A stretch of 64,000 nucleotides of DNA from Escherichia coli (GTDB lineage: Bacteria > Pseudomonadota > Gammaproteobacteria > Enterobacterales > Enterobacteriaceae), in NCBI RefSeq assembly GCF_003334785.1, contig NZ_QOWV01000011.1; one strand, given 5' to 3'. The notes under the pieces are model-generated. The model did no database searches. It was given only the letters and a program-made list of their open reading frames with translations, and was not told the origin of the DNA. A program made the translations under genes and the position numbers. This document shows positions 25,440 to 39,816 of this stretch, piece by piece (within the stretch, counting starts at the first letter, position 1; every line of letters starts with the position of its first letter).

Positions 25440-26669
25440 TTATGGTGCAGGATGGTTGTTGTTTTTAAATGATTGTTCTTTATTGGTATTTGTTGTCATG
25501 GGATGACAGGGTGTCAGAATATGTAGGTGGAGGATTTGGTGGAAAGGATGTGCAGTGGCATGTAACAGAGACATGCCTCTGCGCCTGAGAAGTGCCACAA
25601 TATGGACGAGCAATACAAGCCATGAATACAGACGACGCTGGCGGGGTATCTGACGAGCTGTATTGTGCAGATTGCTCCTGAGCTGGATGATACCCACTGT
25701 CTCCTGTTGTCTTTCCAGACGAATTTTTTCTTCAAGCTGATGGATTTTCTCCAGAATCGTTTCCCGGTTTGCAGCCTGCTCTTCAGACTCGCATGATGGC
25801 ACTGGCACTGGCACTGGCACTGGCACTGGCACTGGCGCGGTTGTAGGTTCTATTGGCCTCTGGGCTTCTTTCAGTAAACTCAGATGCTCAGGCGTAAAAT
25901 CAATCAGTGCTTGCAGGGAAGACCAGCCATATTTTTTACCCAACTGAGATGCTTTAAAGGCAATACCCTGGTATTGAAATGAAAATCCACTCATTTTACC
26001 CGTAGTGGCGATATTGGGTTTGCAGGTCACTCCTTCCTGTTCCAGTAAGCGAACAAAGGTTAGTAAATCGGGATGGTGTGTTAATGCATTGTCGAGCAGG
26101 GCCTGCAACAGTGACTTAGGGCAGGGAGCTGCTGTGCGTTCTGCCATCATCAGTTCATTACGGGAAGGCTTCCTTTTATCCTGGCGGCTACTGCCGGTTA
26201 CACCCGTAGTTTCGGTGAGGCCGTGTACTCTCTCCAGCTCACTGATAATCCGTGTGCCGATAAGATTTTCATTTTTCCCCAGGTACAGTTTTCCACCGAC
26301 CATGTTAATACGACTTGCAATGATATGAATATGCTGCCCATCCGGATCATCGTGCATGATATAGCAGCGAAGATGGGTGTCAGTGAAGCCCATTCGGGCC
26401 ATATAATCGTCAGCGAATGCTGCCCACTGTCTGTTTGACAGTTTCTCACCCTTTGGCAGGCGAAGTGAATTATGCCAGACAGGTTTGGCGACATCGGGAC
26501 GCAGCAGTCGGGTGCCTTCAAATTCACTTATAAGCTCAGCAGCAGTGCTACCCGTCATGTTGCCACCGATGACATAAGGCGTGATTTTGTGGTGAGAACC
26601 TGACTTCAGGCTATAAATAACCACACCTGTGAATTGTTTACCCCTTTTTATTTTCTGCATGCCTTTCAT
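25440..26669 (-). CDS. Mobilisation relaxase (MobA/MbeA-like)
   Basis: 409 aa; histidine-triad-like relaxase motif HDDPDGQHIHIIASR; ATGA start/stop overlap with upstream mobC-like gene. Confidence 0.7.
   Translation of the reverse strand: MKGMQKIKRGKQFTGVVIYSLKSGSHHKITPYVIGGNMTGSTAAELISEFEGTRLLRPDVAKPVWHNSLRLPKGEKLSNRQWAAFADDYMARMGFTDTHLRCYIMHDDPDGQHIHIIASRINMVGGKLYLGKNENLIGTRIISELERVHGLTETTGVTGSSRQDKRKPSRNELMMAERTAAPCPKSLLQALLDNALTHHPDLLTFVRLLEQEGVTCKPNIATTGKMSGFSFQYQGIAFKASQLGKKYGWSSLQALIDFTPEHLSLLKEAQRPIEPTTAPVPVPVPVPVPVPSCESEEQAANRETILEKIHQLEEKIRLERQQETVGIIQLRSNLHNTARQIPRQRRLYSWLVLLVHIVALLRRRGMSLLHATAHPFHQILHLHILTPCHPMTTNTNKEQSFKNNNHPAP
25798..25836. repeat. Hexanucleotide tandem repeat (ggcact) x6.5 inside relaxase gene
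   Basis: Direct read; encodes (Pro-Val)n linker PVPVPVPVPVPVP on minus strand. Confidence 0.9.
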
Positions 26670-27073
26670 GGGTCTGACTCCAGAAATGTTGAGGGAATAA
26701 GGTGATCCCTGAGAGTTTTGATTTGTCTGCGCAGGGCGAAGAGTTCTGTACGGGTCAGTTCGCTGTCAGGGCTTTTGCTGTCGAGATGACTCAACAGGTA
26801 GTTTAAATCCTGTGAAAGGCTGCCAAGTTTTATCCATGCTTCACGATTGATTTCTGGCAGAACCGGCGGGAGTTTATTCAGGGAAGCCATCCTGAGCCAT
26901 TCTCCTTTTTTATACTGACCTCTTTTACTGTCGAGAATAATTAATTCTTCTTCATTTAATCTGACACTGATGCAGTGATGTCGTATTTCATTCTCAGGAA
27001 ATTTGTCAGTATGGAATTTACCGCGTTTTGATACTCTGGTTATATCATCATCATTACTCATGTCACTGTTCAT
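26666..27073 (-). CDS. MobC/MbeC-like relaxosome accessory protein
   Basis: 135 aa; position immediately upstream of and overlapping relaxase; family assignment from composition and context, weaker than relaxase call. Confidence 0.55.
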   Translation of the reverse strand: MNSDMSNDDDITRVSKRGKFHTDKFPENEIRHHCISVRLNEEELIILDSKRGQYKKGEWLRMASLNKLPPVLPEINREAWIKLGSLSQDLNYLLSHLDSKSPDSELTRTELFALRRQIKTLRDHLIPSTFLESDP

Positions 27074-29537: not shown

Positions 29538-30376
29538 CTGAAAGGCCCCTTCACGGTCAATGTGTGGATCATTAGCATTGGCCCTGCGACTACTGATTTT
29601 AACATCTAGGGAAACGTAGCTGATGTTTGGCTTCGATAAGATTCTGTAGCACCGCCTCAGTGGGGTTGTCAGAACATTCCGCTGCCGCCTTAAGAATATC
29701 GCTTACTAGAGATGAAACTGGTTGATTGTAATCCCGGTCGACCGTTACTCTATGTTTATCCGGATAATTTTGGCGTACACATTAAGTGAAGAAAACTTCA
29801 AAGTGATTTGAAACAGATGTTGTATTCACTGGCTCATTTACATTAACTTGAGTGTTGTTCAGCACATGTTGAAACGCAGCTGTAAGGAAGATGATACAGC
29901 CAAGATGTATCCTTCATTATGGGGATTGGCGCGATGACCACCACGGCTTAGCCCGATTGATTATTTGGAAATTGATTAGAATGCATAATCTGGGCTGAGC
30001 TCACTTAAAGTCTCTAATGTTTGACTTGGAGATTTGGGGGGCAGTGGCTTTCAGTTTTGTTAACTCTAACATCTGGTTTACGTTCCTTTTGGAACAAGAA
30101 GCAGAGGTCTGCTAAGTAATGGTTGTACTGCTTGTGATAGGTATGACTGCATGTTCAGCGAGCAAGAATGGCTTAAAAGTTCTGTTACTGAGCACCCCAT
30201 GAAGTTAGAACGATGTCATAACGTGCACGTAACCGTTGAACTGTTCTCTTACAGATAATCTCTACATAGCTATTATTGCTTAGGCGGTAGCTATGTAGAT
30301 GGTTTTTGTAATATTATATTAAAAGTTCATACAGCGACTATAGCATCATTGCGAAAAATATCAGGAGGTGAGTTTA

Positions 30377-32482
30377 ATGTTACGAAAAAGCAAACTTACA
30401 GAGATATATAAAAGGTTTGGTTTTACTGAAGAAAATACAGGTAACGAAAGTATTGCTGTATATTCTATTAAAACAGGGCACTACCATAACGCGGACATAC
30501 TTCCACTAAATAATGAGGTTAATGTAAATCAAACCTTTGAAGAATATAGGCAGTTAGGTTATGCATGTCAAATTAAAAAATATCAGTCTTATGAAGAAGC
30601 ACATAAGGAATTATTTAATGGCTTCTTTAGCGTCGATTCAACTAAAGAAAGGTTGATTAAAGATTATAATACTTTCACAGATTCAATTGTAAAAATTCAC
30701 TCACCTACTGCAACTTATTCCTACATAAATTCAAAATATTACTTAAATGGTGTTATTGGCGAAGCTAATGTTGTTACGGAAATATTAGAGAGAATACAAC
30801 ATAGGCGTCCAATTCTGTTTTTGATTGAGGCTGCAGCCGGTTTTGGAAAGACTTGCACGGCGTATGAATTATTGAGGGAGATTATAGTTAACAATATAGG
30901 GAAAATACCATTATTTTCAGAACTATCAAGGAATAGGCAAGCAAAAATATTCAGGTATGTACTATTAGATGAAATTGATAGAAGTTTTCCTTTGTTAAGC
31001 TCAGCCTTAGTAAGGAATGAAATAAGAGCAGGAAATGTACCAGTTATACTTGACGGGTTTGATGAACTATTGCATGAAAGTACAAACGGAATTGAAAATA
31101 ATTATGAAAAAACAGAGCCAATGCTGGAAACAATAAGTGAGCTTCTAACTGATAGTGCAAAAGTGGTTTTGACAACTCGAAGAACAGCTATATTTGACGG
31201 AGATGAATTCCATCAGTGGATAGCATCACATCAAGAAGATTTTGATGTGATAAGAATAAGAATTCATGAACCACAAATTGAAGACTGGCTTCCAGGTCAA
31301 CGTTTAGATGAAATTTCATCGACAGGATTTCCTCTTAACAAATTATCAAACCCTGTACTGCTATCATTTCTAAGATGCATCGACGACACCGACTTTAATA
31401 AAGTTATAAGCGACCCAACAACTATAGTGAGGAAGTATTTTGATTCAATGCTTGAGCGAGAAAGAAAAAGACAAGATTTATTAATGTCTATTGAAGATCA
31501 ATATACTATACTAAAAATAATAGCTGACGACATGGTCGAGGGTAACTACACATCTGAGTCTAGAGAGTATATATCGTTAGTCATAACTGAAAAGAATCAA
31601 CAACTCTTGGAGGCTACAAGAAAGCTTTATACTGTAGATGAAAGACCAACTACTGACGAATTAGTTAATAAATTAGCATCGCATGCTCTATTAGATCGGT
31701 CAGGCTCAGAAAACCAAGGTATTGGATTTGTTAATGAATTTGTTCTTGGTAATTTTGTTTCTGAAAATATTATTAATGATAAGTCAAATGAATGGATTGG
31801 TGATAAACGTTTTATAGAACCAGCAGTGCAATCTTATATGCCGAGGATCGATGATGAAAAAGAATTACTTTGGCATAGCTTAGAGTTTGCTTTATATTTT
31901 ATGTCAGGTAATGATAAAATCCTTTATAGTCATTTGCTTATAGGAAAAGTTCCATTAGATTTAAAAAATGATAGTGTTGAGCAATTGTCTATATCAAAAC
32001 TTTCTTTAGGCGATATAAATATAATACATGATACTATCTTTGTTGATTGTTCGTTTTTTAGCAGCATATTTACCTGTGGTAATTATAAAAACGTTACATT
32101 CGTGAACTGTTCTTTTATAGATTGTAGTTTTAACGAATTAAGTGGTAGGGAAGATATTTATTTTTTGGGATGTGAATGTGACAATGATGCTATTAATAAA
32201 AAATCTGTCGAGATAAACAGTGAAAATGATCACGATATTACAGATTGTGATATTTACATCTTAGAGAAGTTCTGTCCCAGAGGGAGTGTTAGCTATCATA
32301 AGCATCGGCCTATAAAAGGCTTATGTTCTAACAACAATCAATTTCAGTTAAGTGAAATACTCCATTCTTTAGATAAATTGAGGAAAGACGGTCTTTTACT
32401 TACGCCAGACAAGCGTTCGTTCCTTGAACTTAACATGGCAAGAATATCAGAGATTAAAGCAATTCTTGGGAGGAATTTCTGA
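30377..32482 (+). CDS. NACHT/STAND-type P-loop NTPase with C-terminal pentapeptide repeats
   Basis: Start at ATG 30377 with aggagg RBS; Walker A AAAGFGKT; NACHT-style Walker B VILDGFDEL; C-terminal run FVDCSF-FSSIF-TCGNY-KNVTF-VNCSF-IDCSF. Confidence 0.7.
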   Translation: MLRKSKLTEIYKRFGFTEENTGNESIAVYSIKTGHYHNADILPLNNEVNVNQTFEEYRQLGYACQIKKYQSYEEAHKELFNGFFSVDSTKERLIKDYNTFTDSIVKIHSPTATYSYINSKYYLNGVIGEANVVTEILERIQHRRPILFLIEAAAGFGKTCTAYELLREIIVNNIGKIPLFSELSRNRQAKIFRYVLLDEIDRSFPLLSSALVRNEIRAGNVPVILDGFDELLHESTNGIENNYEKTEPMLETISELLTDSAKVVLTTRRTAIFDGDEFHQWIASHQEDFDVIRIRIHEPQIEDWLPGQRLDEISSTGFPLNKLSNPVLLSFLRCIDDTDFNKVISDPTTIVRKYFDSMLERERKRQDLLMSIEDQYTILKIIADDMVEGNYTSESREYISLVITEKNQQLLEATRKLYTVDERPTTDELVNKLASHALLDRSGSENQGIGFVNEFVLGNFVSENIINDKSNEWIGDKRFIEPAVQSYMPRIDDEKELLWHSLEFALYFMSGNDKILYSHLLIGKVPLDLKNDSVEQLSISKLSLGDINIIHDTIFVDCSFFSSIFTCGNYKNVTFVNCSFIDCSFNELSGREDIYFLGCECDNDAINKKSVEINSENDHDITDCDIYILEKFCPRGSVSYHKHRPIKGLCSNNNQFQLSEILHSLDKLRKDGLLLTPDKRSFLELNMARISEIKAILGRNF

Positions 32483-33387
32483 TGTATAACGGGAATGAAT
32501 TGCGAATTATTCAAAGTTTGCAAAAAGATATAGAAGATGAACTTAATCGTATTGGATTACTTTATCGTTTTTTTTCGAGGACAAAATCAGAAAGCTCAAT
32601 AATTAAGAAATATGAAAAAGAGCCTAATAAATACTCAGAGGATGGTAAAAAAATTCAAGACTTATTTGGGGTTAGGATAATATTATATTTTCCTGATGAT
32701 TTATTTATTGCTCAAAAAACACTGGAGAAATTATTCGAAATTGAATCTAAAACCGTAGACGAAACCACGGCTAATCTCTTTGCGGCAACTCGATGCAATT
32801 ACGTCTTTAAGTTACCAGAAGTATTATCAAATGATAGTGTCTTATTAAAGAAATATTCTTATATTGATACTACTTTTGAAGTCCAATTTAGAACTATTTT
32901 ATCTGAAGGATGGCATGAAGTTGAGCATGATCTACGCTATAAGTGCAAAGAGGATTGGGTTGAGCATAATGACCTTAGTCGCGCGCTGAATGGAATTTAC
33001 GCCTCTTTGGAAACATCTGATTGGGGAATAATGAAGTTATTTGAGGATTTAGCATATAGAAATTATAAGTCAAGCGCATGGTCCGCTATGCTAAGAAATA
33101 AATTAAGATTGAGAATGGACGATAAGCTTGATGAAAAGATAATTTCAATAATTAATGAGAAAGAGCTTGGTAAAAAGTTTTATAGAATTGACAGAGATCG
33201 TTTGTTATCGTTAATGTTAGATTATAATATTGATATACCAATTAATCTTAATAATATAATTTACCTTTGTAATTATTTTTTCATAAAATCTACGGAGCTT
33301 CAGGATATAGCCCCTGCTTTAATAATGAAAAAGCTTACAGATGCTGATGAAAAATTCAATAAAAATACTATTTTAGCATCTAAATAA
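32482..33387 (+). CDS. RelA/SpoT-domain nucleotidyltransferase (alarmone-synthetase / toxSAS-like)
   Basis: Start overlaps upstream stop (TGATG); motifs FSRTKSESSIIKKYEK, DLFGVRIILYFPDD and EVQFRTILSEGWHEVEHD correspond to the RelA/SpoT synthetase fold (G/RxKS..S, D..G.RII, ExQIRT). Confidence 0.65.
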   Translation: MYNGNELRIIQSLQKDIEDELNRIGLLYRFFSRTKSESSIIKKYEKEPNKYSEDGKKIQDLFGVRIILYFPDDLFIAQKTLEKLFEIESKTVDETTANLFAATRCNYVFKLPEVLSNDSVLLKKYSYIDTTFEVQFRTILSEGWHEVEHDLRYKCKEDWVEHNDLSRALNGIYASLETSDWGIMKLFEDLAYRNYKSSAWSAMLRNKLRLRMDDKLDEKIISIINEKELGKKFYRIDRDRLLSLMLDYNIDIPINLNNIIYLCNYFFIKSTELQDIAPALIMKKLTDADEKFNKNTILASK

Positions 33388-33405
33388 TAACTATCTCCGG
33401 CTATT

Positions 33406-33433
33406 AAGTAGGCCTTGTATTTTAGGCCTACTT
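33406..33433. terminator. Hairpin downstream of the NTPase-RelA/SpoT pair
   Basis: Stem aagtaggcc/ggcctactt with 9-nt loop; A-run on plus side, so may serve either strand. Confidence 0.4.
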
Positions 33434-33766
33434 AAAAAGTTTCATTATGTGAAGTGATGATGATAGCAAATCTGCTATCTTTATGGTTGGATGCGAGAAA
33501 ATATTTTTATCCCGACACAACAACTGGTAATGATAGAAAATTTAAACCCAAAAATGCTACAGTAGCCTCAGCTCACAAACGGAGTATAAAGTGGCGGTTA
33601 CTCTTTAGTGGGAATACTGTAGATAGTTGATAAACTGGGCTGGATTTTCTTTTCTAACCGAAGGGAAGAAAAGCAAGGGGAACCCAAAGAAACAAGCGCA
33701 GCGGCTTCGTAGGGTTAGCCCTTGCTTCTTTTATAATTGGCATTATTCATTCAAGAACAATAGGAT

Positions 33767-33786
33767 CTTCGCTTGTACAAGCGAAG
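33767..33786. promoter_or_regulatory. Perfect 20-bp palindrome cttcgcttgtacaagcgaag
   Basis: Direct read; lies in 1-kb ORF-free AT-rich spacer downstream of ParB-like genes. Confidence 0.5.
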
Positions 33787-34439
33787 CTATAATAAAAAAT
33801 CAATTAATTATTTTAAAAGTATTAAGCAAGAGCCTATTGACATTCGTAAAATAAAAGTTATTTTTAATGTATGCCATAAATAAAAAGTTTTATGTCATAT
33901 GTATCCTGCACTATGTGCAGTTAATGTGCCACTTGTCCCATATATGGGAATATTGGAAAGGTTACTTTGTTTTGAAGTAGCCTTTCGTCCTTCAATATTC
34001 ACGATTACTTATTGCTATTACCAAGTCCAGTCGAATCGAAGAACATCTTTTATCTGAAACGACTCCTAATACCAGGTTGAAGCCACAATATCTCTCGCAT
34101 AAGTAGACCAAAGAAAAATTATGATATTAACTATGTGATTTTTTTTAGTGTTAAGTTGAATAATTATATACTGGAGAGTTTTCTGTACACTACCAATTGC
34201 TGGTTCATCTGTTCTGCCGCTGATGTTTCTGACTAATCTCCCGGTGACACAGAACTGTCCCTCTCTACCAGCCTTTATTCGACTCAATGTCCGGCTGCTG
34301 ATACGCAGTTATCCCTTCGTATCAATGACTGACTCTTAAACGCAATGCTTTGGTTGCTGGCGTATCTGACAGCTTCTTCGGCGTGAAGGTCGTTGTGTAA
34401 GTATACTTCTTGGTTTATTTAGGCTATATAAAACCATGA

Positions 34440-35336
34440 CTATGACTGGCTGTTTTCAGTAAGAGTCTTATCATCCAAAGAATTTATTCTAGAAATTCTT
34501 TTTAACTCATTAAGATAATCAACCTCGTTTTCTAAGAACCAATGAAGAACTTTAGAGTTGCCAAGTAATTTATTAATATATGACTGGATTATAACGAATT
34601 TCAACATATCTGAACCATACTCGGTTTGAAGTTTTTTCGTTTCTTCCGAAGTTGTTGCCATTTCTTGTTCCAGACGAAGTATGGTTTTTTTTATGTCCTT
34701 TTTATAGGGAGTGTTTTTCCCTTTATTTACTATCATCGATGACGGTGTTGCATCCAAGATGCTCATTGCAAATTTTTTACTATAATTATCAAAATTAATC
34801 ATTGTACCGACTGCTTCAATTTGACGAATTGGCTTCATTTTCCTCAAAACGTCAAATGTAGCCTTAGGTATAGGTTTATCAGAAAGTTTCGCAATTACAC
34901 TTGGATCTATGCCGTTCATCACATTAGCTTTATCTTTTATGGCATCAACAGATATGCCCAAAGCAGCACTAAGTTTTTCAATTGATACTTTTGCCAGAGA
35001 CTTAATTATCATTCTATGTTCTTCAACTACATTTATATGATTCACTTGTTTGTTAGGAGTGAAAGCATCATCTATGCTCGAAAGTATACATGGAGCTTTT
35101 TCTATATCTAAGTCTTTTAAAGCCTCAACCCTTAAATGGCCATCAAGTATCTTAGTGACATCTTTATCTTTGTCATAGAATACTATTATTGGTTCAATAA
35201 TACCCAAGCTTTCGATAGAGGTAACTATTTGATGATATTTATGGCTTCGCTTTACGTTTTCTAATAATTCCTTAGATGGAATTAACTTATTAGTTTCCAG
35301 GTAAATAAAATTTTTGCCAAAACGTATCTGAATCAT
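34440..35336 (-). CDS. ParB/Srx-fold (ParB-like nuclease domain) protein
   Basis: 298 aa; N-terminal ParB-like pattern ...IEPIIVFYDKDKDVTKILDGHLRVEALKDLDIEKAPCIL. Confidence 0.55.
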   Translation of the reverse strand: MIQIRFGKNFIYLETNKLIPSKELLENVKRSHKYHQIVTSIESLGIIEPIIVFYDKDKDVTKILDGHLRVEALKDLDIEKAPCILSSIDDAFTPNKQVNHINVVEEHRMIIKSLAKVSIEKLSAALGISVDAIKDKANVMNGIDPSVIAKLSDKPIPKATFDVLRKMKPIRQIEAVGTMINFDNYSKKFAMSILDATPSSMIVNKGKNTPYKKDIKKTILRLEQEMATTSEETKKLQTEYGSDMLKFVIIQSYINKLLGNSKVLHWFLENEVDYLNELKRISRINSLDDKTLTENSQS

Positions 35337-36229
35337 TTTGATACCTCTTTGTTTACTGGGTTTAATATCTGAGATGGTAGTTCTGAAAGATTCTCTTGTT
35401 CAAGTATATTTTGAAAGCTTTTATTCATCATTATGATGTTAAAAATCTCATTTATTATTAGTAGATTGGTTTTTATAAATTTCGAGTTGTTATAAACAGA
35501 TTTATGTTCAGCGATACTATTTTCATAAAGCTCAATCAACTCCTCTGCAGTCATCCTTTTTGATGGTTTGTGATAATAAAATCCGGCTGCTTTTGCACCT
35601 TTATTCCCAACTGTTCTTTGATTTAGAATGTATTTTATCTTTATAATGTCCCGACTTTTTATTAATTTTTTATCATATGCTTCGGTAAGAATATCTTGTG
35701 CTTCCTCAGTTTCACATCTTGCAAATTGCACTGCGAGATACAGAGGCAAATTACCCCGTTCGACTGCTGAGAGAAGTTTATGCTCTCCCTTATCAAGAAG
35801 CATATTAATACTGCTCACCCAGTTCGATGAATATCCAGTAATCTCACTTATTTCGGAGTCTGAAAGTCCTCTGATTTTCATGTCTTTAATCACCTGTAAT
35901 AACTCATTAGAACGTGGTCTTCTCCTTGCAATGTTTTCAACTAAACTCATAACGTAAGCATCTTCTTCTGATACATCTCTTATAATTGCTGGAATAATAG
36001 TTTCACCTAATGCAACAAGAGCCTCTATTCTCCCTTGACCACAAATTAAAGCATATTTGAAATCGTCTTCATCAATAGCTCTTACGCTTATAGGCTTGCT
36101 TAATCCTCTTTTTTTTATGCTTTCCTTTATTTCTTCATGCACTACCTTATTTCTTGTTCGTGGGTTAAGAAATTTTATTTTTGCAATCTCAATTTGAATT
36201 ATTGGGAATTCATTTTTTTCAGGCAGCAT
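35333..36229 (-). CDS. ParB/Srx-fold (ParB-like) protein
   Basis: 298 aa; ...KPISVRAIDEDDFKYALICGQGRIEALVALGETIIPAIIRDVSEEDAYVMSLVENIARR resembles ParB N-terminal domain; 4-nt overlap with downstream gene. Confidence 0.6.
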   Translation of the reverse strand: MLPEKNEFPIIQIEIAKIKFLNPRTRNKVVHEEIKESIKKRGLSKPISVRAIDEDDFKYALICGQGRIEALVALGETIIPAIIRDVSEEDAYVMSLVENIARRRPRSNELLQVIKDMKIRGLSDSEISEITGYSSNWVSSINMLLDKGEHKLLSAVERGNLPLYLAVQFARCETEEAQDILTEAYDKKLIKSRDIIKIKYILNQRTVGNKGAKAAGFYYHKPSKRMTAEELIELYENSIAEHKSVYNNSKFIKTNLLIINEIFNIIMMNKSFQNILEQENLSELPSQILNPVNKEVSK

Positions 36230-37775
36230 ATAGTTCCCTCACTTTCATGCGAGTAATAATTTGTAGAAATTTATCAAGATTATCAAATCTATAGAGATCT
36301 AACCGAATGTTGTTTGTTTCCATCATACACATTTTACTATATTCGTTTTCAATCTTTGGTATGATATAAAAATCAAGAGGTGAAATATTTTGTGAATTCA
36401 TTCGTATAACAATTGTTATGTCTGCTTTCTGTGAGTTATCAAACCGGACTTTCCATCTAAGTTTACCTGATTTCATATGTATGCATTTAGTAACAAGGAC
36501 GGAAATTAAAAACTCATCATTGATGTAAAGCATTGGGTAATATTTATACTCGTCTATATGACAGTTACTTTTTAATATTTCGCCCTTAAAATCCTCAATT
36601 ATCTCTGAGTAAAATGATCTTAGTGCTTCATTTATTTGGAGATAGCTGTAATCATGTTCTGGCTTATAACCAATCAAAGTATATGCTCTTAAAAGACCAC
36701 CAAATCGGGTTCTATAAACAGAAGATGAAGGGCCTGTATCATCTTCATCAATGATAAAGCCTGATAGTTTTCCATTAGATTCTAATTTTTCTTTTAGCTT
36801 TTCTAATAGATCTTCATTAGTCAAATGAATGGATCGGAGCTGAATTATTTCTTGAGCTTTATTATATTTTTTCTTTGAAATAATTGGTTTATATGCCTTG
36901 TCACATCTAATCCATTCATGTTTGGGGTTTTTTACAAGCTTACTTTTTAGTTTAGATGAGGTTTTGTTATATATGTTGTTTCCAATATATTTTTCATTTG
37001 TCAAAATTTGATGTATTTTTGCACGAGTCCATGATGTTCCATTTTCTGCAGGTATGCTCTGTTCATTTAATCTCTCAGCAATAATGAATTCTGGGACGTT
37101 ACTATCTATAAAGAGATCATAGATTCTATTTACAATTTTTATTTCATTTTTTGGTCCCGGAATTAATATTACCCTATCTGTTTGAATACTCTTTCTTTTG
37201 CGGAAATTCAATATTTCTTTAGCTATGCCATTTTCGTCTACTAAAAGACGTCTCAGCCCATAACCAGCCATACCGCCTTGATGATAACCAAGCTTTATTA
37301 AATTTACTTGCCCTATAAATACCTTTTCAGATAGATTCCTGCTGTGATATGCAGCACTTGATCTTTTTATATTCAGTATAACAGAGGACTCTAAAGGGAA
37401 ATCTTTAGTGGGTATAGGTTCGGAACAATATATAAGATCTACACCATTTCTTTCAAATAGAAAGGAATAATATGCAGCTTCATCACTATTTTGAAAACGA
37501 CCAAAACGGCTCACATCATAAAATAATACAGCCTGTATATCTATTTTCTTTTGTTCTACATCGCTAAGTAACTGCTGCAAAGAATGCCTGCCTACGATAC
37601 TGACTCCGCTCTTACCTGCATCATCGTAGGTATAAGCGATTTCCATATTGTTCTTTTCAGCATAATCTTTGATATATTCAGACTGATTATGTAAAGAATA
37701 TTGCTGATGGTCGGTAGACATCCTCAAGTACTGTGCGACCCTAACTCTATGATTTTTTTCATTTCCGCTAGCCAT
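36219..37775 (-). CDS. Large serine recombinase (resolvase + recombinase domains)
   Basis: N-terminal resolvase motif YLRMSTDHQQYSLHNQ with catalytic-Ser context and DVSRFGRF; downstream recombinase-domain pattern (SWTRAKIHQILTNEKYIGN); start at ATG 37775. Confidence 0.7.
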   Translation of the reverse strand: MASGNEKNHRVRVAQYLRMSTDHQQYSLHNQSEYIKDYAEKNNMEIAYTYDDAGKSGVSIVGRHSLQQLLSDVEQKKIDIQAVLFYDVSRFGRFQNSDEAAYYSFLFERNGVDLIYCSEPIPTKDFPLESSVILNIKRSSAAYHSRNLSEKVFIGQVNLIKLGYHQGGMAGYGLRRLLVDENGIAKEILNFRKRKSIQTDRVILIPGPKNEIKIVNRIYDLFIDSNVPEFIIAERLNEQSIPAENGTSWTRAKIHQILTNEKYIGNNIYNKTSSKLKSKLVKNPKHEWIRCDKAYKPIISKKKYNKAQEIIQLRSIHLTNEDLLEKLKEKLESNGKLSGFIIDEDDTGPSSSVYRTRFGGLLRAYTLIGYKPEHDYSYLQINEALRSFYSEIIEDFKGEILKSNCHIDEYKYYPMLYINDEFLISVLVTKCIHMKSGKLRWKVRFDNSQKADITIVIRMNSQNISPLDFYIIPKIENEYSKMCMMETNNIRLDLYRFDNLDKFLQIITRMKVRELYAA

Positions 37776-38057
37776 GCACAAAACCTCATGGATGATTCAA
37801 TACAATGTAGAGGATAAAATTGATCAAATTTTAACCGAATTCAACTGTTTTATCATTGATTAGAGCGAATTTGGTAGTTCTTCGAGGTGTATGATAATCG
37901 AGAAGAGATGTGAATTATTTAGCTGATATGACCGACAGCTTTCGTTATGTGGCCTCAAGGTACCCATTTGTAAATGGCTATGCTTAGTCCACATAGGTTA
38001 ATGGTGTGATCATTAATTCTTCAAATAAATCAAGATAGTTAACCCATCATGGAAGAG

Positions 38058-39287
38058 TTATGCGGCAATAACTTTGTATTTTTGAGACGAAACATAGTCA
38101 CTCCACCATTGCATGAGAACCACACGTTCTGTGAGATACTCTGCACGATTGTAGGCTGCAATTATTTCATCTTTTTTCGAGTGGGCAAGGGCGGCTTCTA
38201 AGACATCAGTTCTAAACTTGCCACACTCCTCAGCCGCCGTTCTAGCGATTGATCGCATACCATGAGCTACAAGCTCACCTCCGAAGCCCATACGGATTAT
38301 AGCCGCATTAGCTGTTTGTTCATGCATGTGATTGAGTGGAGCTTTGATACTGGGAAAAACCCACTCTCTATGCCCGCTGATGGCTTTCATTGAATCCAAG
38401 ACTCGCAAAGATTCTTTGCTCAGTGGAACTTTGTGAGGCTTCTTCATTTTCATAAACTCCGCCGGGATGTTCCACATGCTGGTTTCTATATCAATATCTG
38501 ACCATCTTGTGCGAACAGCTTCACCAGGGCGAACCCATGTGAGAAGTTGCCACTCAATCAGTAGCCTTGTTTCTAAACGGATAGAAGCATTGTTTAGAGC
38601 AACCAGGAAGCGGGGGAGTTCGGAAGGGGGTAATGCTGGCATATTCTGTTTTTTTGGCTTGCTGAACCGTTGCCCCAGGTTGTCAGCCGGATTGAATTCT
38701 ATGAGTTCTTCTGTTGCTGCATAGCGGAAAATTTCATTCAGGCGGGATATGACGCGGCGAAGTGTTTCAAGGACACCTCGTTTTTCTATGGGGTCTAAAT
38801 GCTGTTTAAGCATTTTAGGGCGAATCTCCTTAATGGGGGTATCACCCAACGTTGGAAAGATATTTCTCTCTAGGCTTCGCCAGATGTCGTTAGCATGATC
38901 CTGGGAGATGCCTGACGTTTTGACTTTCTCATCAAGCCACTTCTTGGCTACTGCTTGAAATGTATGTTCCGTTGCATCCTTAAGGGCATTGGCTTTGTGG
39001 GTGTTATGAACTTGTGGGTCTATACCATTTGCAAGCAACGACAAGTACTCATCACGTAAAGCTCGTGCCTTCGCAAGTGTAAGGTGAGGATAGGTTCCTA
39101 AGCTCACCTTAGTTCGCTTTTTGGTCACAGGCACTGCATATCTGAAATACCAATTTTTCTTTCCTCCCTTCGCTAAGGGGGCGATTCGCAGGAGCAAACC
39201 ATCGCCGTCAAAAAGGTTAACCTCTTTCTCGGCAGGTTTGGTGCTTTTGATTTCAGTGTCAGTGAGCTTCTTAGCGATTTTTGCCAT
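38058..39287 (-). CDS. P4-type tyrosine integrase (IntA-like) next to ssrA
   Basis: Start at MAKIAKKLTDTEIKS (ATG 39287) in ORF 38058-39431; C-terminal catalytic region with HGMRSIARTAA and terminal tyrosine context; directly 5' of tmRNA 3' end. Confidence 0.85.
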   Translation of the reverse strand: MAKIAKKLTDTEIKSTKPAEKEVNLFDGDGLLLRIAPLAKGGKKNWYFRYAVPVTKKRTKVSLGTYPHLTLAKARALRDEYLSLLANGIDPQVHNTHKANALKDATEHTFQAVAKKWLDEKVKTSGISQDHANDIWRSLERNIFPTLGDTPIKEIRPKMLKQHLDPIEKRGVLETLRRVISRLNEIFRYAATEELIEFNPADNLGQRFSKPKKQNMPALPPSELPRFLVALNNASIRLETRLLIEWQLLTWVRPGEAVRTRWSDIDIETSMWNIPAEFMKMKKPHKVPLSKESLRVLDSMKAISGHREWVFPSIKAPLNHMHEQTANAAIIRMGFGGELVAHGMRSIARTAAEECGKFRTDVLEAALAHSKKDEIIAAYNRAEYLTERVVLMQWWSDYVSSQKYKVIAA

Positions 39288-39453
39288 GTTTGGGACCCTC
39301 ATGTTTTGGACCCTTTGTGTTGGGTCCCAAAAAGGGTGCCATAACGAGTAGATTCTAGCAATTCTCGGTAGACTACTATAGACGTAAAAAAGCCCGCAAG
39401 GCTGGTTCCATGCGGGCTTGATAGACTTCACTGAACTTCAATATATCAAAAAT

Positions 39454-39816
39454 TGGTGGAGCTGGCGGGAGTTGAACCCGCGTCCGAAATTCCTACATCC
39501 TCGGTACTACATGCTTAGTCAGTCTTTACATTCGCTTGCCAGCTGCGGACGGACACGCCACTAACAAACTAGCCTGATTAAGTTTTAACGCTTCAACCCC
39601 AGGCAGGGCTTCCACGCGATCTCTTTTGGGTTTGACCTCTCTTGATCCCCGTCCTAAGAGCGGAGGCTAGGGAGAGAGGGCTCTAAGCAGGTTATTAAGC
39701 TGCTAAAGCGTAGTTTTCGTCGTTTGCGACTATTTTTTGCGGCTTTTTACGAGGCCAACCGCCCCTCGGCATGCACCTTGGGTTTCGCAAATCCCGTCGA
39801 ATCCAGAATCAGCCCC
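39454..39816 (-). ncRNA. ssrA: tmRNA (SsrA)
   Basis: 363 nt; minus-strand sense begins ggggctgattctggattcgacggg and ends ...gggttcaactcccgccagctccacca; tag-encoding region present. Confidence 0.95.

Follow-up and report, generated by a model that had tools for sequence, protein, structure and literature searches.

Short palindromes make up the known parS, KorB and Noc sites; those of the parS type are usually present as multiple copies close to parAB or upstream of it, and a ParA ATPase is the partner. Large serine recombinases act at att sites, which are imperfect dyads of about 40-50 bp located at element boundaries. Conserved noncoding hairpin clusters are also found beside origins of transfer (oriT), as in the leading-region signals Frpo of F and ssi, in which G.T/U pairing favours one strand. 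Origins of transfer of the MOBQ type (RSF1010/R1162 family) comprise an inverted repeat followed by a nick region, with the consensus NWACCNNTAAGTGCGCCCTYNN and a nick core consensus of GCGCCCTY (PMC3832669). There is general precedent in integrative elements for the clustering of defence cargo beside oriT (bioRxiv 10.64898/2026.01.13.699239) and other mobilizable islands replicate after excision (bioRxiv 10.64898/2026.01.12.698999). The PIME elements, a family of mobilizable elements that was also considered, are distinct from the family of the island described here.

The locus compared with these systems is a 1-kb gap in the window, the 64,000-nucleotide stretch of Escherichia coli DNA under analysis. 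It lies within an ssrA-integrated mobilizable island that carries an integrase, a large serine recombinase, two ParB-like genes, the gap itself, defence-type cargo, a mobC-like gene and a relaxase (25440-27073). The initial annotation correctly placed the gap between the RelA/SpoT gene (plus strand, ending at 33387) and the ParB-like genes (the last, on the minus strand, ending at 34440), but the gap is not upstream of the latter, as it is flanked by convergent 3' ends. Likewise, its description as AT-rich holds against the window (36.8% versus 44.9% GC) but hardly against the whole island, at 38% on average. That it contains no convincing open reading frame was borne out: the longest encode 75 aa (33627-33854) and 73 aa (34066-34287), both from TTG starts, and seven stop-to-stop peptides (six of the seven longest and one spliced peptide from an insertion-sequence relic, see below) gave no match to an NCBIfam family at E <= 1.

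The left part of the gap, 33388-33646 (plus strand), is the 3' flank of a NACHT and RelA/SpoT cargo module, and includes a perfect stem-loop with 12-bp arms (33404-33435) that starts 17 nt past the RelA/SpoT stop codon. This segment is present in only 78 of 5426 E. coli genomes; in an evenly spaced sample of matches, most of the remaining E. coli matches begin only at 33647, with other cargo to the left, such as a type I R-M system in place of the RelA/SpoT module at locus L003. The noncoding module to its right, of ~530 bp, is present in ~457 genomes, with identical copies in strains such as ML35, NCTC9100 and FDAARGOS_1248. Of the three island contexts in which it is found, two are without ParB or serine-recombinase genes, and the ParB1 gene of this island type occurs in 624 of 5426 complete E. 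coli genomes. The module ends in a weakly conserved tail (33991-34170, no strand assigned) with 71% identity to L036, a representative of the islands at ygbA. In ygbA-type islands the homologous tail stops at the junction of island and chromosome; at L036, homology to the window stops at position 9344 of the locus and the chromosomal flank held in common with L039 begins at 9369. Tandem islands were considered as an explanation and rejected, as no further ssrA 3' end was detected above chance within the island. Further right lies a relic of the middle part of an IS3-family (ISKpn34-like) transposase gene (plus strand, about 34245-34402 by tblastx extent). Its segment 34255-34398 is 78% identical in nucleotide sequence to plasmid-borne transposase genes of the ISKpn34 family, the match being interior to the coding sequence, and PGAP annotates 34255-34366 as a frameshifted, partial IS3 transposase pseudogene. 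This relic is the only protein remnant found in the gap when peptides were compared with protein families and the DNA by nucleotide and tblastx searches. IS3-type pseudogenes also flank the gap in L003 and L044, and an intact IS3 copy does so in L041. A weak tblastx match (E 0.31) to an IS3 C-terminal motif was observed at 33881-33943. The gap is thus a mosaic junction at which the convergent 3' ends of two modules meet in a mobilizable defence island.

The perfect 20-bp palindrome cttcgcttgtacaagcgaag reported previously is located exactly at 33767-33786 (halves CTTCGCTTGT|ACAAGCGAAG, no strand assigned), and it had been proposed as a parS-like centromere or recombinase site, for which adjacency to ParB-like genes was the only ground. 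In common with the parS/ParB, KorB-OB and Noc-NBS systems, it is a short and perfect palindrome close to ParB-family genes, 650 bp from two of the ParB/RepB family (PF02195 and PF07506), and it lies 2.4 kb from the large serine recombinase. Unlike those sites, however, it is present as a single copy downstream, not upstream, of the ParB operon, no ParA/Soj gene is annotated in the island and it does not co-occur with ParB. Together with the hairpin element and the four-hairpin block described below, it recurs at the ygbA-proximal end of a different island type, L036, in the annotated part of which there is no ParB or serine recombinase, and L042 and L043 have the same architecture. It is absent beside the ParB1 orthologue of Enterobacter vonholyi (L006, 97% amino acid identity), beside ParB1 in L004 and L005 (E. 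coli B and strain 99-3165, with IS1 truncations) and beside ParB1 orthologues in 28 other species (loci L004-L034 overall). Lack of conservation in homologous islands had been named previously as a refutation, and on this point the outcome is divided: the palindrome is kept where the noncoding module is homologous, yet its distribution does not follow that of ParB. A large serine recombinase att site was also rejected, since the palindrome has perfect dyad symmetry over 20 bp, including its TA centre, it occurs in islands lacking the recombinase and the breakpoints of the module lie elsewhere, at 33646 and 33733. A stronger candidate for the cognate site of the ParB/recombinase operon is another palindrome, AAAATTGATCAAATTT (37816-37831), which is found about 45-60 bp upstream of the recombinase gene (78 bp in L027) at 7 of 23 loci, in several genera. 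These comparisons speak against the gap as a centromere for the neighbouring ParB-like genes or a recombination site for the serine recombinase, and a parS or crossover role for the palindrome appears highly improbable.

The second feature noted previously, an imperfect inverted repeat, proved to be real, with 14-nt arms (33666-33679 and 33719-33732) that are 86% complementary and 39 nt apart. These arms form helix S1 (AAGCAAGGG/CCCTTGCTT) of a conserved 88-nt hairpin element on the minus strand (33645-33732), which comprises three stacked helices (S1, S2 and S3) and, at its flank, a small hairpin with the invariant CAACCGAAGGG as its loop; the order on the minus strand is hairpin, T-run and then CCCTTCGGTT. 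A covariance model of the element, R1, identified 18 copies in 17 sources at E <= 1e-8, distributed across five genera (E. coli, Enterobacter, Pantoea, Kosakonia and Erwinia). Pairing is maintained in 96.7% of cells across the copies, with five pairs changed on both sides, a value equalled by 0 of 500 shuffles and compared with 26-53% in slid controls. Both inverted repeats are thus conserved cis-elements rather than products of chance, the arms of the palindrome being invariant and the hairpin covarying. The hairpin lies 103-116 bp upstream of the mobC-like gene in L038, L039, L041 (copy 2) and L023 and adjoins this gene in L024 and L027, whilst in the window, L003, L036, L040 and L043 cargo has been inserted between the two, such that the window hairpin is 6.5 kb from mobC. 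In a family of enterobacterial islands it marks where the mobC-like/relaxase module borders the cargo slot. L041 has two copies, one on each side of a mobC pseudogene, an arrangement indicative of tandem islands and not of a cassette array. An integron attC site, which has mutually complementary R''/R' boxes (RYYYAAC ... GTTRRRY) together with L boxes and extrahelical bases, was rejected, as the sequences ...GGGGAAC and GTTAGCC fit neither RYYYAAC nor GTTRRRY and are not mutually complementary. Rfam 15 gave no match in the gap at the gathering score, and at E <= 10 only a chance match to fiv_FSE at 33678-33702.

On the minus strand the element also has the form of an intrinsic terminator, a stable stem (about -29 kcal/mol) directly followed by a U-run, with T4-6 after the stem in 18 of 18 copies; the T-run of the plus strand is not conserved among them. 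Like intrinsic bidirectional terminators, it has a stem base containing G+C and an A-run on the opposite side, and in L039 and L040 it is situated 8-13 bp past cargo stop codons. In contrast to such terminators, its loop and flank sequences are conserved across genera, and its multi-helix stem falls outside the standard terminator scan, which admits loops of at most 8 nt and did not flag it.

The element most likely represents an origin-of-transfer hairpin, a minus-strand terminator or both, the former reading being suggested by its position and its flanking motif. In six lineages it lies immediately upstream of the mobC-like accessory gene and a relaxase with a MobA/VirD2 domain, thus adjacent to relaxase and accessory-protein genes as an oriT is, and, as in MOBQ-type origins, the inverted repeat stands beside a short conserved motif and is better conserved than the adjoining genes. 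The hairpin has 73-78% nucleotide identity to Pantoea and Enterobacter copies, whereas the MobC and relaxase proteins are only 41-54% identical to those of Pantoea and Kosakonia. A conserved motif containing (C/G)GCCCTT is located 6-8 nt past the repeat, and in 8 of the 18 copies the sequence directly beyond the repeat agrees with GCGCCCTY at 7 of 8 positions, against a background of 66 such matches per 128,000 positions. The differences from MOBQ origins are also clear. The repeat is far longer (three helices, 60-70 nt) and has a conserved internal loop, only 5-7 of the 8 core positions match, TAAGTG is absent and the motif sits in the loop of a second small hairpin. In addition, the relaxase is not confidently MOBQ; it is weakly typed, belonging to Pfam PF03432, with NCBIfam matches to MobP and Bacteroides MobB that are far below cut-off. 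The copy in the window may no longer act as an oriT, given that it matches the core at 5 of 8 positions and is separated from mobC by 6.5 kb and cargo. A nick on the minus strand would cause the mob genes to enter the recipient first, which is not the usual order. Taken together, the inverted repeats accompany the relaxase (DNA-transfer) module rather than ParB, and are probably a transfer-origin hairpin and a promoter/operator, not a centromere.

The palindrome lies 35 bp from the hairpin element, within a promoter-like block (33733-33795) that forms the best-conserved 63 bp of the noncoding module, with 92% identity to L036 compared with 69-71% for the linker and tail. It is the sole perfect palindrome with arms of at least 9 nt in the 64-kb window and is single-copy there even at three mismatches. 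First-order Markov simulations predict 0.07 such palindromes per 64 kb and place one in 0.3% of simulated 1-kb spacers, a rarity that is unusual though not decisive alone, conservation being the stronger evidence. Both 9-nt arms are invariant in nine sequence variants, the sole change being a central T to C in L036 and L043, and neighbouring segments diverge by 13-30%. Only about five independent lineages, all E. coli, carry the palindrome, so its apparent conservation could be inflated by recent exchange. It overlaps the predicted start of a promoter-like element, P1 (33737-33766, plus strand; TTGGCA, 18 nt, TAGGAT; 9/12 in a consensus scan), the hexamers and spacing of which are free of indels in the nine variants, and it is directly followed by a perfect TATAAT (33788-33793). 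Promoter-like matches in the gap are nevertheless at chance level, with 5 found against 4.4 expected in shuffles. A related 9-mer, CTTCGCTTG, is present in five direct copies in the L044 variant, which suggests a protein-binding motif; elsewhere in the island it is not above chance (16 found, 12 +/- 3.4 expected). Because it overlaps the start predicted for a conserved promoter, the palindrome is best read, if still tentatively, as an operator-type protein site. Like LacI- and LexA-type operators, it is a perfect dyad overlapping the -10/+1 region of a conserved promoter-like element; like the sites of the relaxosome accessory proteins NikA of R64 and TrwA of R388, it is close to a (candidate) oriT repeat; and its invariant arms around a variable centre are a further point of likeness. 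It differs from them in being a single site, at a promoter that is only predicted. The possibility of a small RNA on the minus strand, reaching from TATTAT (33794-33789) across the palindrome to the hairpin terminator, was rejected, as its -35/-10 spacing differs among lineages (17, 19 or 20 nt).

Downstream, a second predicted promoter is followed by four conserved hairpins (33837-33990). This promoter-like element, P3 (33837-33864, plus strand; TTGACA, 16 nt, TATTTT), scores 10/12 in the consensus scan, and its -35 hexamer is invariant and a TAT-type -10 kept in all five lineages, including the divergent L044. The hairpins (33867-33990, plus strand; H1 33867-33902, H2 33905-33920, H3 33936-33949 and H4 33956-33987) are 90% identical to L036 as a block and fold as RNA at -39.8 kcal/mol, with z = -4.71 on the plus strand and -3.81 on the minus strand. 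Their consensus fold contains 35 pairs, three of which show compensatory changes, and a change from U.G to C-G fits the plus strand. No U-rich terminator follows H4. The block is argued to be noncoding because its indels are not multiples of three and a start codon is lost in L036. A conserved 10-codon mini-ORF, ATGTCATATGTATCCTGCACTATGTGCAGTTAA, beginning at 33892 and with three third-position differences between lineages, was not adopted, as no Shine-Dalgarno sequence precedes it and L044 has lost the start codon. The folding models make a small structured RNA downstream of the palindrome plausible, as had been suggested for this spacer, and identify 33867-33990 as a candidate structured RNA of ~120 nt or single-strand DNA signal. 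It resembles the leading-region signals of conjugative transfer in being a conserved noncoding hairpin cluster beside a (candidate) oriT with pairing that favours one strand, but, in contrast to them, the noncoding module is without similarity to any PLSDB plasmid. The module has no homologues in plasmids and phages beyond the IS3 piece, scans of viral contigs recovered only the same E. coli lineages and a full-text literature search for its motifs found nothing relevant. The structured block is thus undescribed in the Rfam, phage, plasmid (beyond the IS3 relic) and full-text literature comparisons.

Several explanations can accommodate these observations. We tentatively favour, whilst not regarding it as established, one in which the gap serves an integrative mobilizable element as its cis-acting control region, with cargo and scars of insertion sequences on its flanks. 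The hairpin would be the relaxase-recognition repeat of an origin of transfer, with the minus strand nicked 6-8 nt beyond the repeat, within the conserved motif (C/T)(C/G)GCC|CTTCGG, and it would also stop minus-strand transcription ahead of the mob promoter, such that read-through from the ParB operon would end at 33650-33665. The palindrome would be a dimer-binding operator overlapping the start of P1, an outward promoter, and would be bound by a DNA-binding protein that the island encodes, be it a regulator or an accessory protein of the relaxosome. Transcription from P1 and P3, with starts expected near 33773 and 33871, would give the ~120-nt four-hairpin RNA, or alternatively the hairpins may act in the transferred single-stranded DNA. 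An alternative that we consider unlikely dispenses with DNA transfer: P3 and the four hairpins (about 33871-33990, plus strand) are a small-RNA gene, the palindrome regulates it from upstream and the long hairpin does no more than insulate the modules as a bidirectional terminator. The invariant -35 of P3, the fold score, compensatory pairs and strand preference of the block, the lack of a protein gene after the module in three independent contexts and the canonical stem, minus-strand T-run and close spacing to cargo stops of the hairpin are all in keeping with such a gene. Against this, Rfam offers no match, a terminator past H4 is missing and the predicted start would cut away part of H1; moreover, the loop/flank sequence CAACCGAAGGG is conserved far beyond the needs of a generic terminator, and above the adjacent genes.

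It is similarly unlikely that the gap is largely non-functional debris, composed of the decayed leader or promoter of lost cargo and insertion-sequence scars, with repeats kept by recent ancestry or by hitch-hiking with the hairpin element. The IS3 relic and IS1 truncations in and beside the gap, the IS3 flanks in L003, L044 and L041, the indel-rich linker and tail (about 70% identity) and the occurrence at the equivalent position in Pantoea, Erwinia and Enterobacter of a TTGAC promoter followed by real ORFs are what decay would leave. Decay is, however, at odds with block-wise conservation, as the palindrome block and the hairpins (92% and 90%) exceed both the adjacent noncoding DNA and the backbone genes of the same island pair (each about 70%), with the compensatory changes that keep hairpin stems paired and with persistence of the module in about 457 genomes and three contexts. 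A vegetative replication origin of the excised island, in which a 187-aa HTH protein (22026-22589) binds CTTCGCTTG initiator sites beside an 80% A+T stretch (33787-33870), seems improbable. The AT-rich segment and the five direct 9-mer copies in L044 are compatible with an origin, as are the weak likeness of the protein to HTH_36, phage Rep_O and Rep3_N (E 0.002-0.12) and its occurrence with the module in the window, L053 and L036 but not in L039, which lacks the module. All of these Pfam matches are nevertheless below significance, the co-occurrence draws on three or four lineages, the window contains a single palindrome instead of an iteron array, there is no DnaA box and the single IHF consensus site is not conserved. 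A further reading, again rather improbable, is that 33733-33990 is itself a self-contained noncoding 'cargo', a device made of RNA alone or of single-stranded DNA that the palindrome would switch. This segment occupies the slot usual for protein defence systems, and in three independent contexts it is followed by no gene; examples of such cargo would be an RNA that regulates or that acts against phages or plasmids, or a promoter or priming signal in single-stranded DNA that comes into play upon entry into the recipient.

The comparisons correct a tempting error of annotation, namely to call a palindrome parS for no more than its ParB-like neighbours. The islands at ssrA and at ygbA-mutS are common carriers of anti-phage systems in E. 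coli. If the hairpin is indeed an oriT, the covariance model R1 would provide a marker with which to find these islands and their cargo slots, and the clustering of defence genes beside the hairpin would be explained.

The window belongs to the Escherichia coli chromosome, and the 1052 bp between the genes flanking the gap match several complete E. coli genomes at 100% identity. Based on RefSeq annotation of these identical copies and on family scans, the gene order runs outward from the tmRNA gene ssrA (39454-39816, minus strand; tag ANDENYALAA). A P4-type integrase gene lies nearest to ssrA (38058-39431, minus), followed by a large serine recombinase gene (36219-37781, minus) and two ParB/RepB-family genes (35333-36229 and 34440-35336, both minus). 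Beyond the gap stand the RelA/SpoT (32482-33387, plus) and NACHT (30368-32482, plus) cargo genes, further cargo, a mobC-like gene encoding 135 aa (26666-27073; NikA-like match, weak only) and a gene for a MobA/VirD2-domain relaxase (25440-26669). These genes make up an integrative mobilizable island inserted at the tmRNA hotspot; islands of this class have already been reported to carry defence systems (PMC10121019). In this order the genes on either side of the gap converge on it with their 3' ends, so it is not upstream of the ParB genes. The NACHT-domain (704 aa) and RelA/SpoT-domain (301 aa) proteins are encoded with a 1-base overlap as a two-gene cassette (30368-33387, plus); its matches to defence families are weak only (HalA, AbiGI, PDC-S33), and it may be an anti-phage system whose effector resembles an alarmone synthetase. 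Elsewhere in the window, ARAGORN calls a tRNA-Met (anticodon CAT) at 13229-13304 (plus), whilst RefSeq annotates the homologous gene as tRNA-Ile, and it is therefore probably a lysidine-modified ileY-type tRNA. Between the integrase and recombinase genes, 37946-37995 holds an imperfect inverted repeat (24-nt arms, 75% complementary, 2 nt apart).

The initial annotation had described the gap as free of convincing ORFs and as holding a perfect palindrome and a second, imperfect inverted repeat, and this description holds. The palindrome (33767-33786) is exact, occurs once in the window and is the only perfect one there with arms of at least 9 nt; Markov simulations gave 0.07 such palindromes per 64 kb and placed one in 0.3% of simulated 1-kb spacers. 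The imperfect repeat (33666-33732) has 14-nt arms that are 86% complementary, the longest ORF spans 75 aa, and none of the stop-to-stop peptides tested matches a protein family. The GC content of the gap is 36.8%, against 38% for the whole island. The gap is a mosaic. Among 5426 complete E. coli genomes, part of it is found in 613 and all of it in only 78. In most other E. coli carriers, judged from an evenly spaced sample of matches, 33647-34439 is shared at ~96.6% identity beside a different left-hand cargo (in L003, a type I R-M system), so 33646/33647 is a module junction. IS1 cuts the sequence at about 34096 in E. coli B and at about 34060 in strain 99-3165, and 34245-34402 is an internal remnant of an IS3-family (ISKpn34-like) transposase gene.

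The adjacency of two ParB-like genes had led to the proposal that the palindrome is a parS-like centromere or a recombinase site. This proposal is not supported in either direction: islands of the L036 type possess the palindrome with no annotated ParB, and orthologues of one of the two, ParB1, occur without the palindrome. Conservation in related islands, put forward as a check, is seen within the L036-type module and does not track ParB. In Enterobacter vonholyi (ParB1 97% identical in amino acids) the palindrome is missing and homology to the window ends 46 bp past the ParB1 stop codon; E. coli B retains the recombinase and ParB genes and also lacks it. The palindrome is thus very probably neither a parS nor a recombinase site for the adjacent genes. 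The recombinase and the two paralogous ParB/RepB_C proteins (34440-37781, minus) form a conserved unit with overlapping stop and start codons in all species loci retrieved, complete in 26 of 29 and seen only in part in the other three, where the contig or locus ends; the loci range from Enterobacterales to Rhizobiales, Pandoraea, Microbulbifer and a Sumerlaeia MAG. This trio matches no PADLOC system. Its own palindrome, of the AAATTGATCAATTT type, is present in 7/23 loci (37816-37831 in the window), about 45-60 bp upstream of the recombinase gene (78 bp in L027), and is a better candidate than 33767-33786 for a cognate site of the operon.

The imperfect repeat forms the stem of a conserved, family-wide hairpin tied to the mobC/relaxase module. 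Of the 29 loci gathered from other species via ParB1 homologues, four (Enterobacter vonholyi, Pantoea, Kosakonia and Erwinia) contain a match to 33646-33736 at 73-78% identity, located 3.8-6.7 kb from ParB1, and a distant search of E. coli genomes turned up additional islands with only this ~85-nt piece. Nine E. coli variants were used to build a covariance model, which identified 18 copies (E <= 1e-8). In the alignment fitted to the model, pairing holds in 96.7% of cells, and five pairs (13 cells) have changed at both positions; these values were not reached in any of 500 shuffles, and sliding the partners lowered pairing to 26-53%. Compensatory changes occur in all three helices: AAGCAAGG/CCTTGCTT to AAGCAAGA/TCTTGCTT in Enterobacter (S1), AACCC/GGGTT to AACTC/GAGTT or AACTT/AAGTT (S2) and GAAGC/GCTTC to GATGC/GCATC (S3). 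The Pantoea and Enterobacter copies retain 73-78% nucleotide identity, and protein identity is 41-42% for MobC and 54% for the relaxase (Pantoea, Kosakonia); nucleotide conservation of the element is thus above the level suggested by the neighbouring proteins.

In L038, L039, L023 and the second copy of L041, the mobC-like start codon lies 103-116 bp downstream of the hairpin element, and in L024 and L027 the element falls within the same conserved mobC-proximal interval, whose other conserved blocks are an AGCATAT..ATATGCT dyad and GTCAATG. In the window, L003, L036, L040 and L043, cargo is inserted between element and mobC. On the far side, a minus-strand cargo operon ends 8-13 bp from the element in L039 and L040; L006, L023, L027 and the second L041 copy have an outward TTGAC promoter there, followed by plus-strand cargo. 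On the minus strand every copy carries T4-6 directly past the stem, then (C/T)(C/G/T)(G/T)CCCTTCGGTT; against the published MOBQ nick core GCGCCCTY (PMC3832669), eight copies agree at 7/8 positions and the window's copy at 5/8. We infer that the element is the origin-of-transfer repeat of this island family, a candidate oriT; its sequence marks it as a minus-strand terminator as well. L041 has two 88-nt copies 1.3 kb apart in one E. coli genome (6000-6087 and 7303-7381), flanking a hypothetical gene and a frameshifted mobC pseudogene, which looks like two island remnants joined in tandem. Cargo slots beside the hairpin (L023 8044-13136; L038 from 11930) are highly diverse, including His-Xaa-Ser (HxsDBCA) with a TIGR04141 protein, retron Ec48, ABC-three-component systems, type I R-M, a ThiF/MPN pair and DUF4209, a pattern consistent with a hotspot for defence cargo next to the hairpin.

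The palindrome is part of a second conserved module and does not go with the ParB genes. Another type of E. coli island, between ygbA and mutS, comprises an integrase, an HTH protein, a relaxase, mobC and a single cargo gene; in L036 its annotated part contains neither ParB nor a serine recombinase, and L042 and L043 share this architecture in shorter stretches. At the end of this island lies a homologue of window positions 33646 to about 34170 (82% identity), which stops at the island/chromosome junction; DNA identity is ~70% for the backbone genes of the window's island and L036. Identity between window and L036 is 83% across the hairpin element (33647-33732), 92% across the promoter-like P1, palindrome and TATAAT (33733-33795), 69% in an indel-rich linker (33796-33834), 78% at the promoter-like P3 (33835-33866), 90% across four hairpins, H1-H4 (33867-33990), and 71% in the tail (33991-34170). 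Both 9-nt palindrome arms are unchanged across nine sequence variants, the sole change being a central T to C. P1 reads TTGGCA-18-TAGGAT with conserved spacing, the palindrome begins one base past its -10, and a perfect TATAAT lies one base beyond the palindrome end. The palindrome forms the centre of this strongly conserved promoter-proximal block and is most economically read as an operator-type site. All five lineages keep the -35 hexamer of P3 unchanged; promoter-like matches around the gap are not commoner than in shuffles, so it is conservation that argues for P1 and P3 as promoters. In a third context, L044, a divergent version directly follows an ssrA integrase gene, and neither recombinase nor ParB genes intervene; its dyad is degenerate, and five direct copies of CTTCGCTTG-like 9-mers nearby point to a protein-binding motif. 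This variant (L044 5130-5320; also L048 and L051) has a ~104-bp direct duplication, each unit of which holds GCTTCGCTTG(C/T)ATTGATTTTAAA(A)GCTTCTCTTGCAG, and it is this duplication that produces the five copies, which correspond to the half-site motif of the palindrome.

Three rivals compete with this reading: a small-RNA gene standing alone, inert debris, and a replication origin. The region 33866-34000 folds into four successive hairpins at -39.8 kcal/mol (z of -4.7 on the plus and -3.8 on the minus strand), in which one U.G to C-G change is sensible on the plus strand only; the block has no U-rich terminator, and no match to the module was found in Rfam, or in phages or plasmids beyond the IS3 relic. 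The five-lineage consensus keeps 35 pairs, three with compensatory changes (e.g. CTGCAC/GTGCAG to CTGTAC/GTACAG). No conserved ORF is present, as indels are not multiples of three and a start codon is lost in L036. A 10-codon mini-ORF, MSYVSCTMCS (33892-33924, plus), lies inside H1/H2 and differs at three sites in L036/L043, each of them a third codon position; with no Shine-Dalgarno sequence, and with the start missing from L044, it is probably a coincidence. A literature search gave no relevant match. The replication origin of the third rival would be bound by the island's weakly Rep-like HTH protein, a 187-aa backbone protein (22026-22589, minus) with weak similarity to HTH_36, phage Rep_O and Rep3_N. 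This protein and the palindrome/four-hairpin module occur together in the window, L053 and L036, and both are missing from L039, among the few lineages checked; it could be a palindrome-binding protein or a replication initiator. The four-hairpin block itself may be a small structured RNA or a signal in single-strand DNA.

The features first described in this gap are real and were linked to the wrong neighbours. Our tentative reading of what they do in this island family, to which we give somewhat less than an even chance, is that the hairpin would serve as oriT and terminator, the palindrome as an operator and the four-hairpin block as a structured RNA or single-strand DNA signal.
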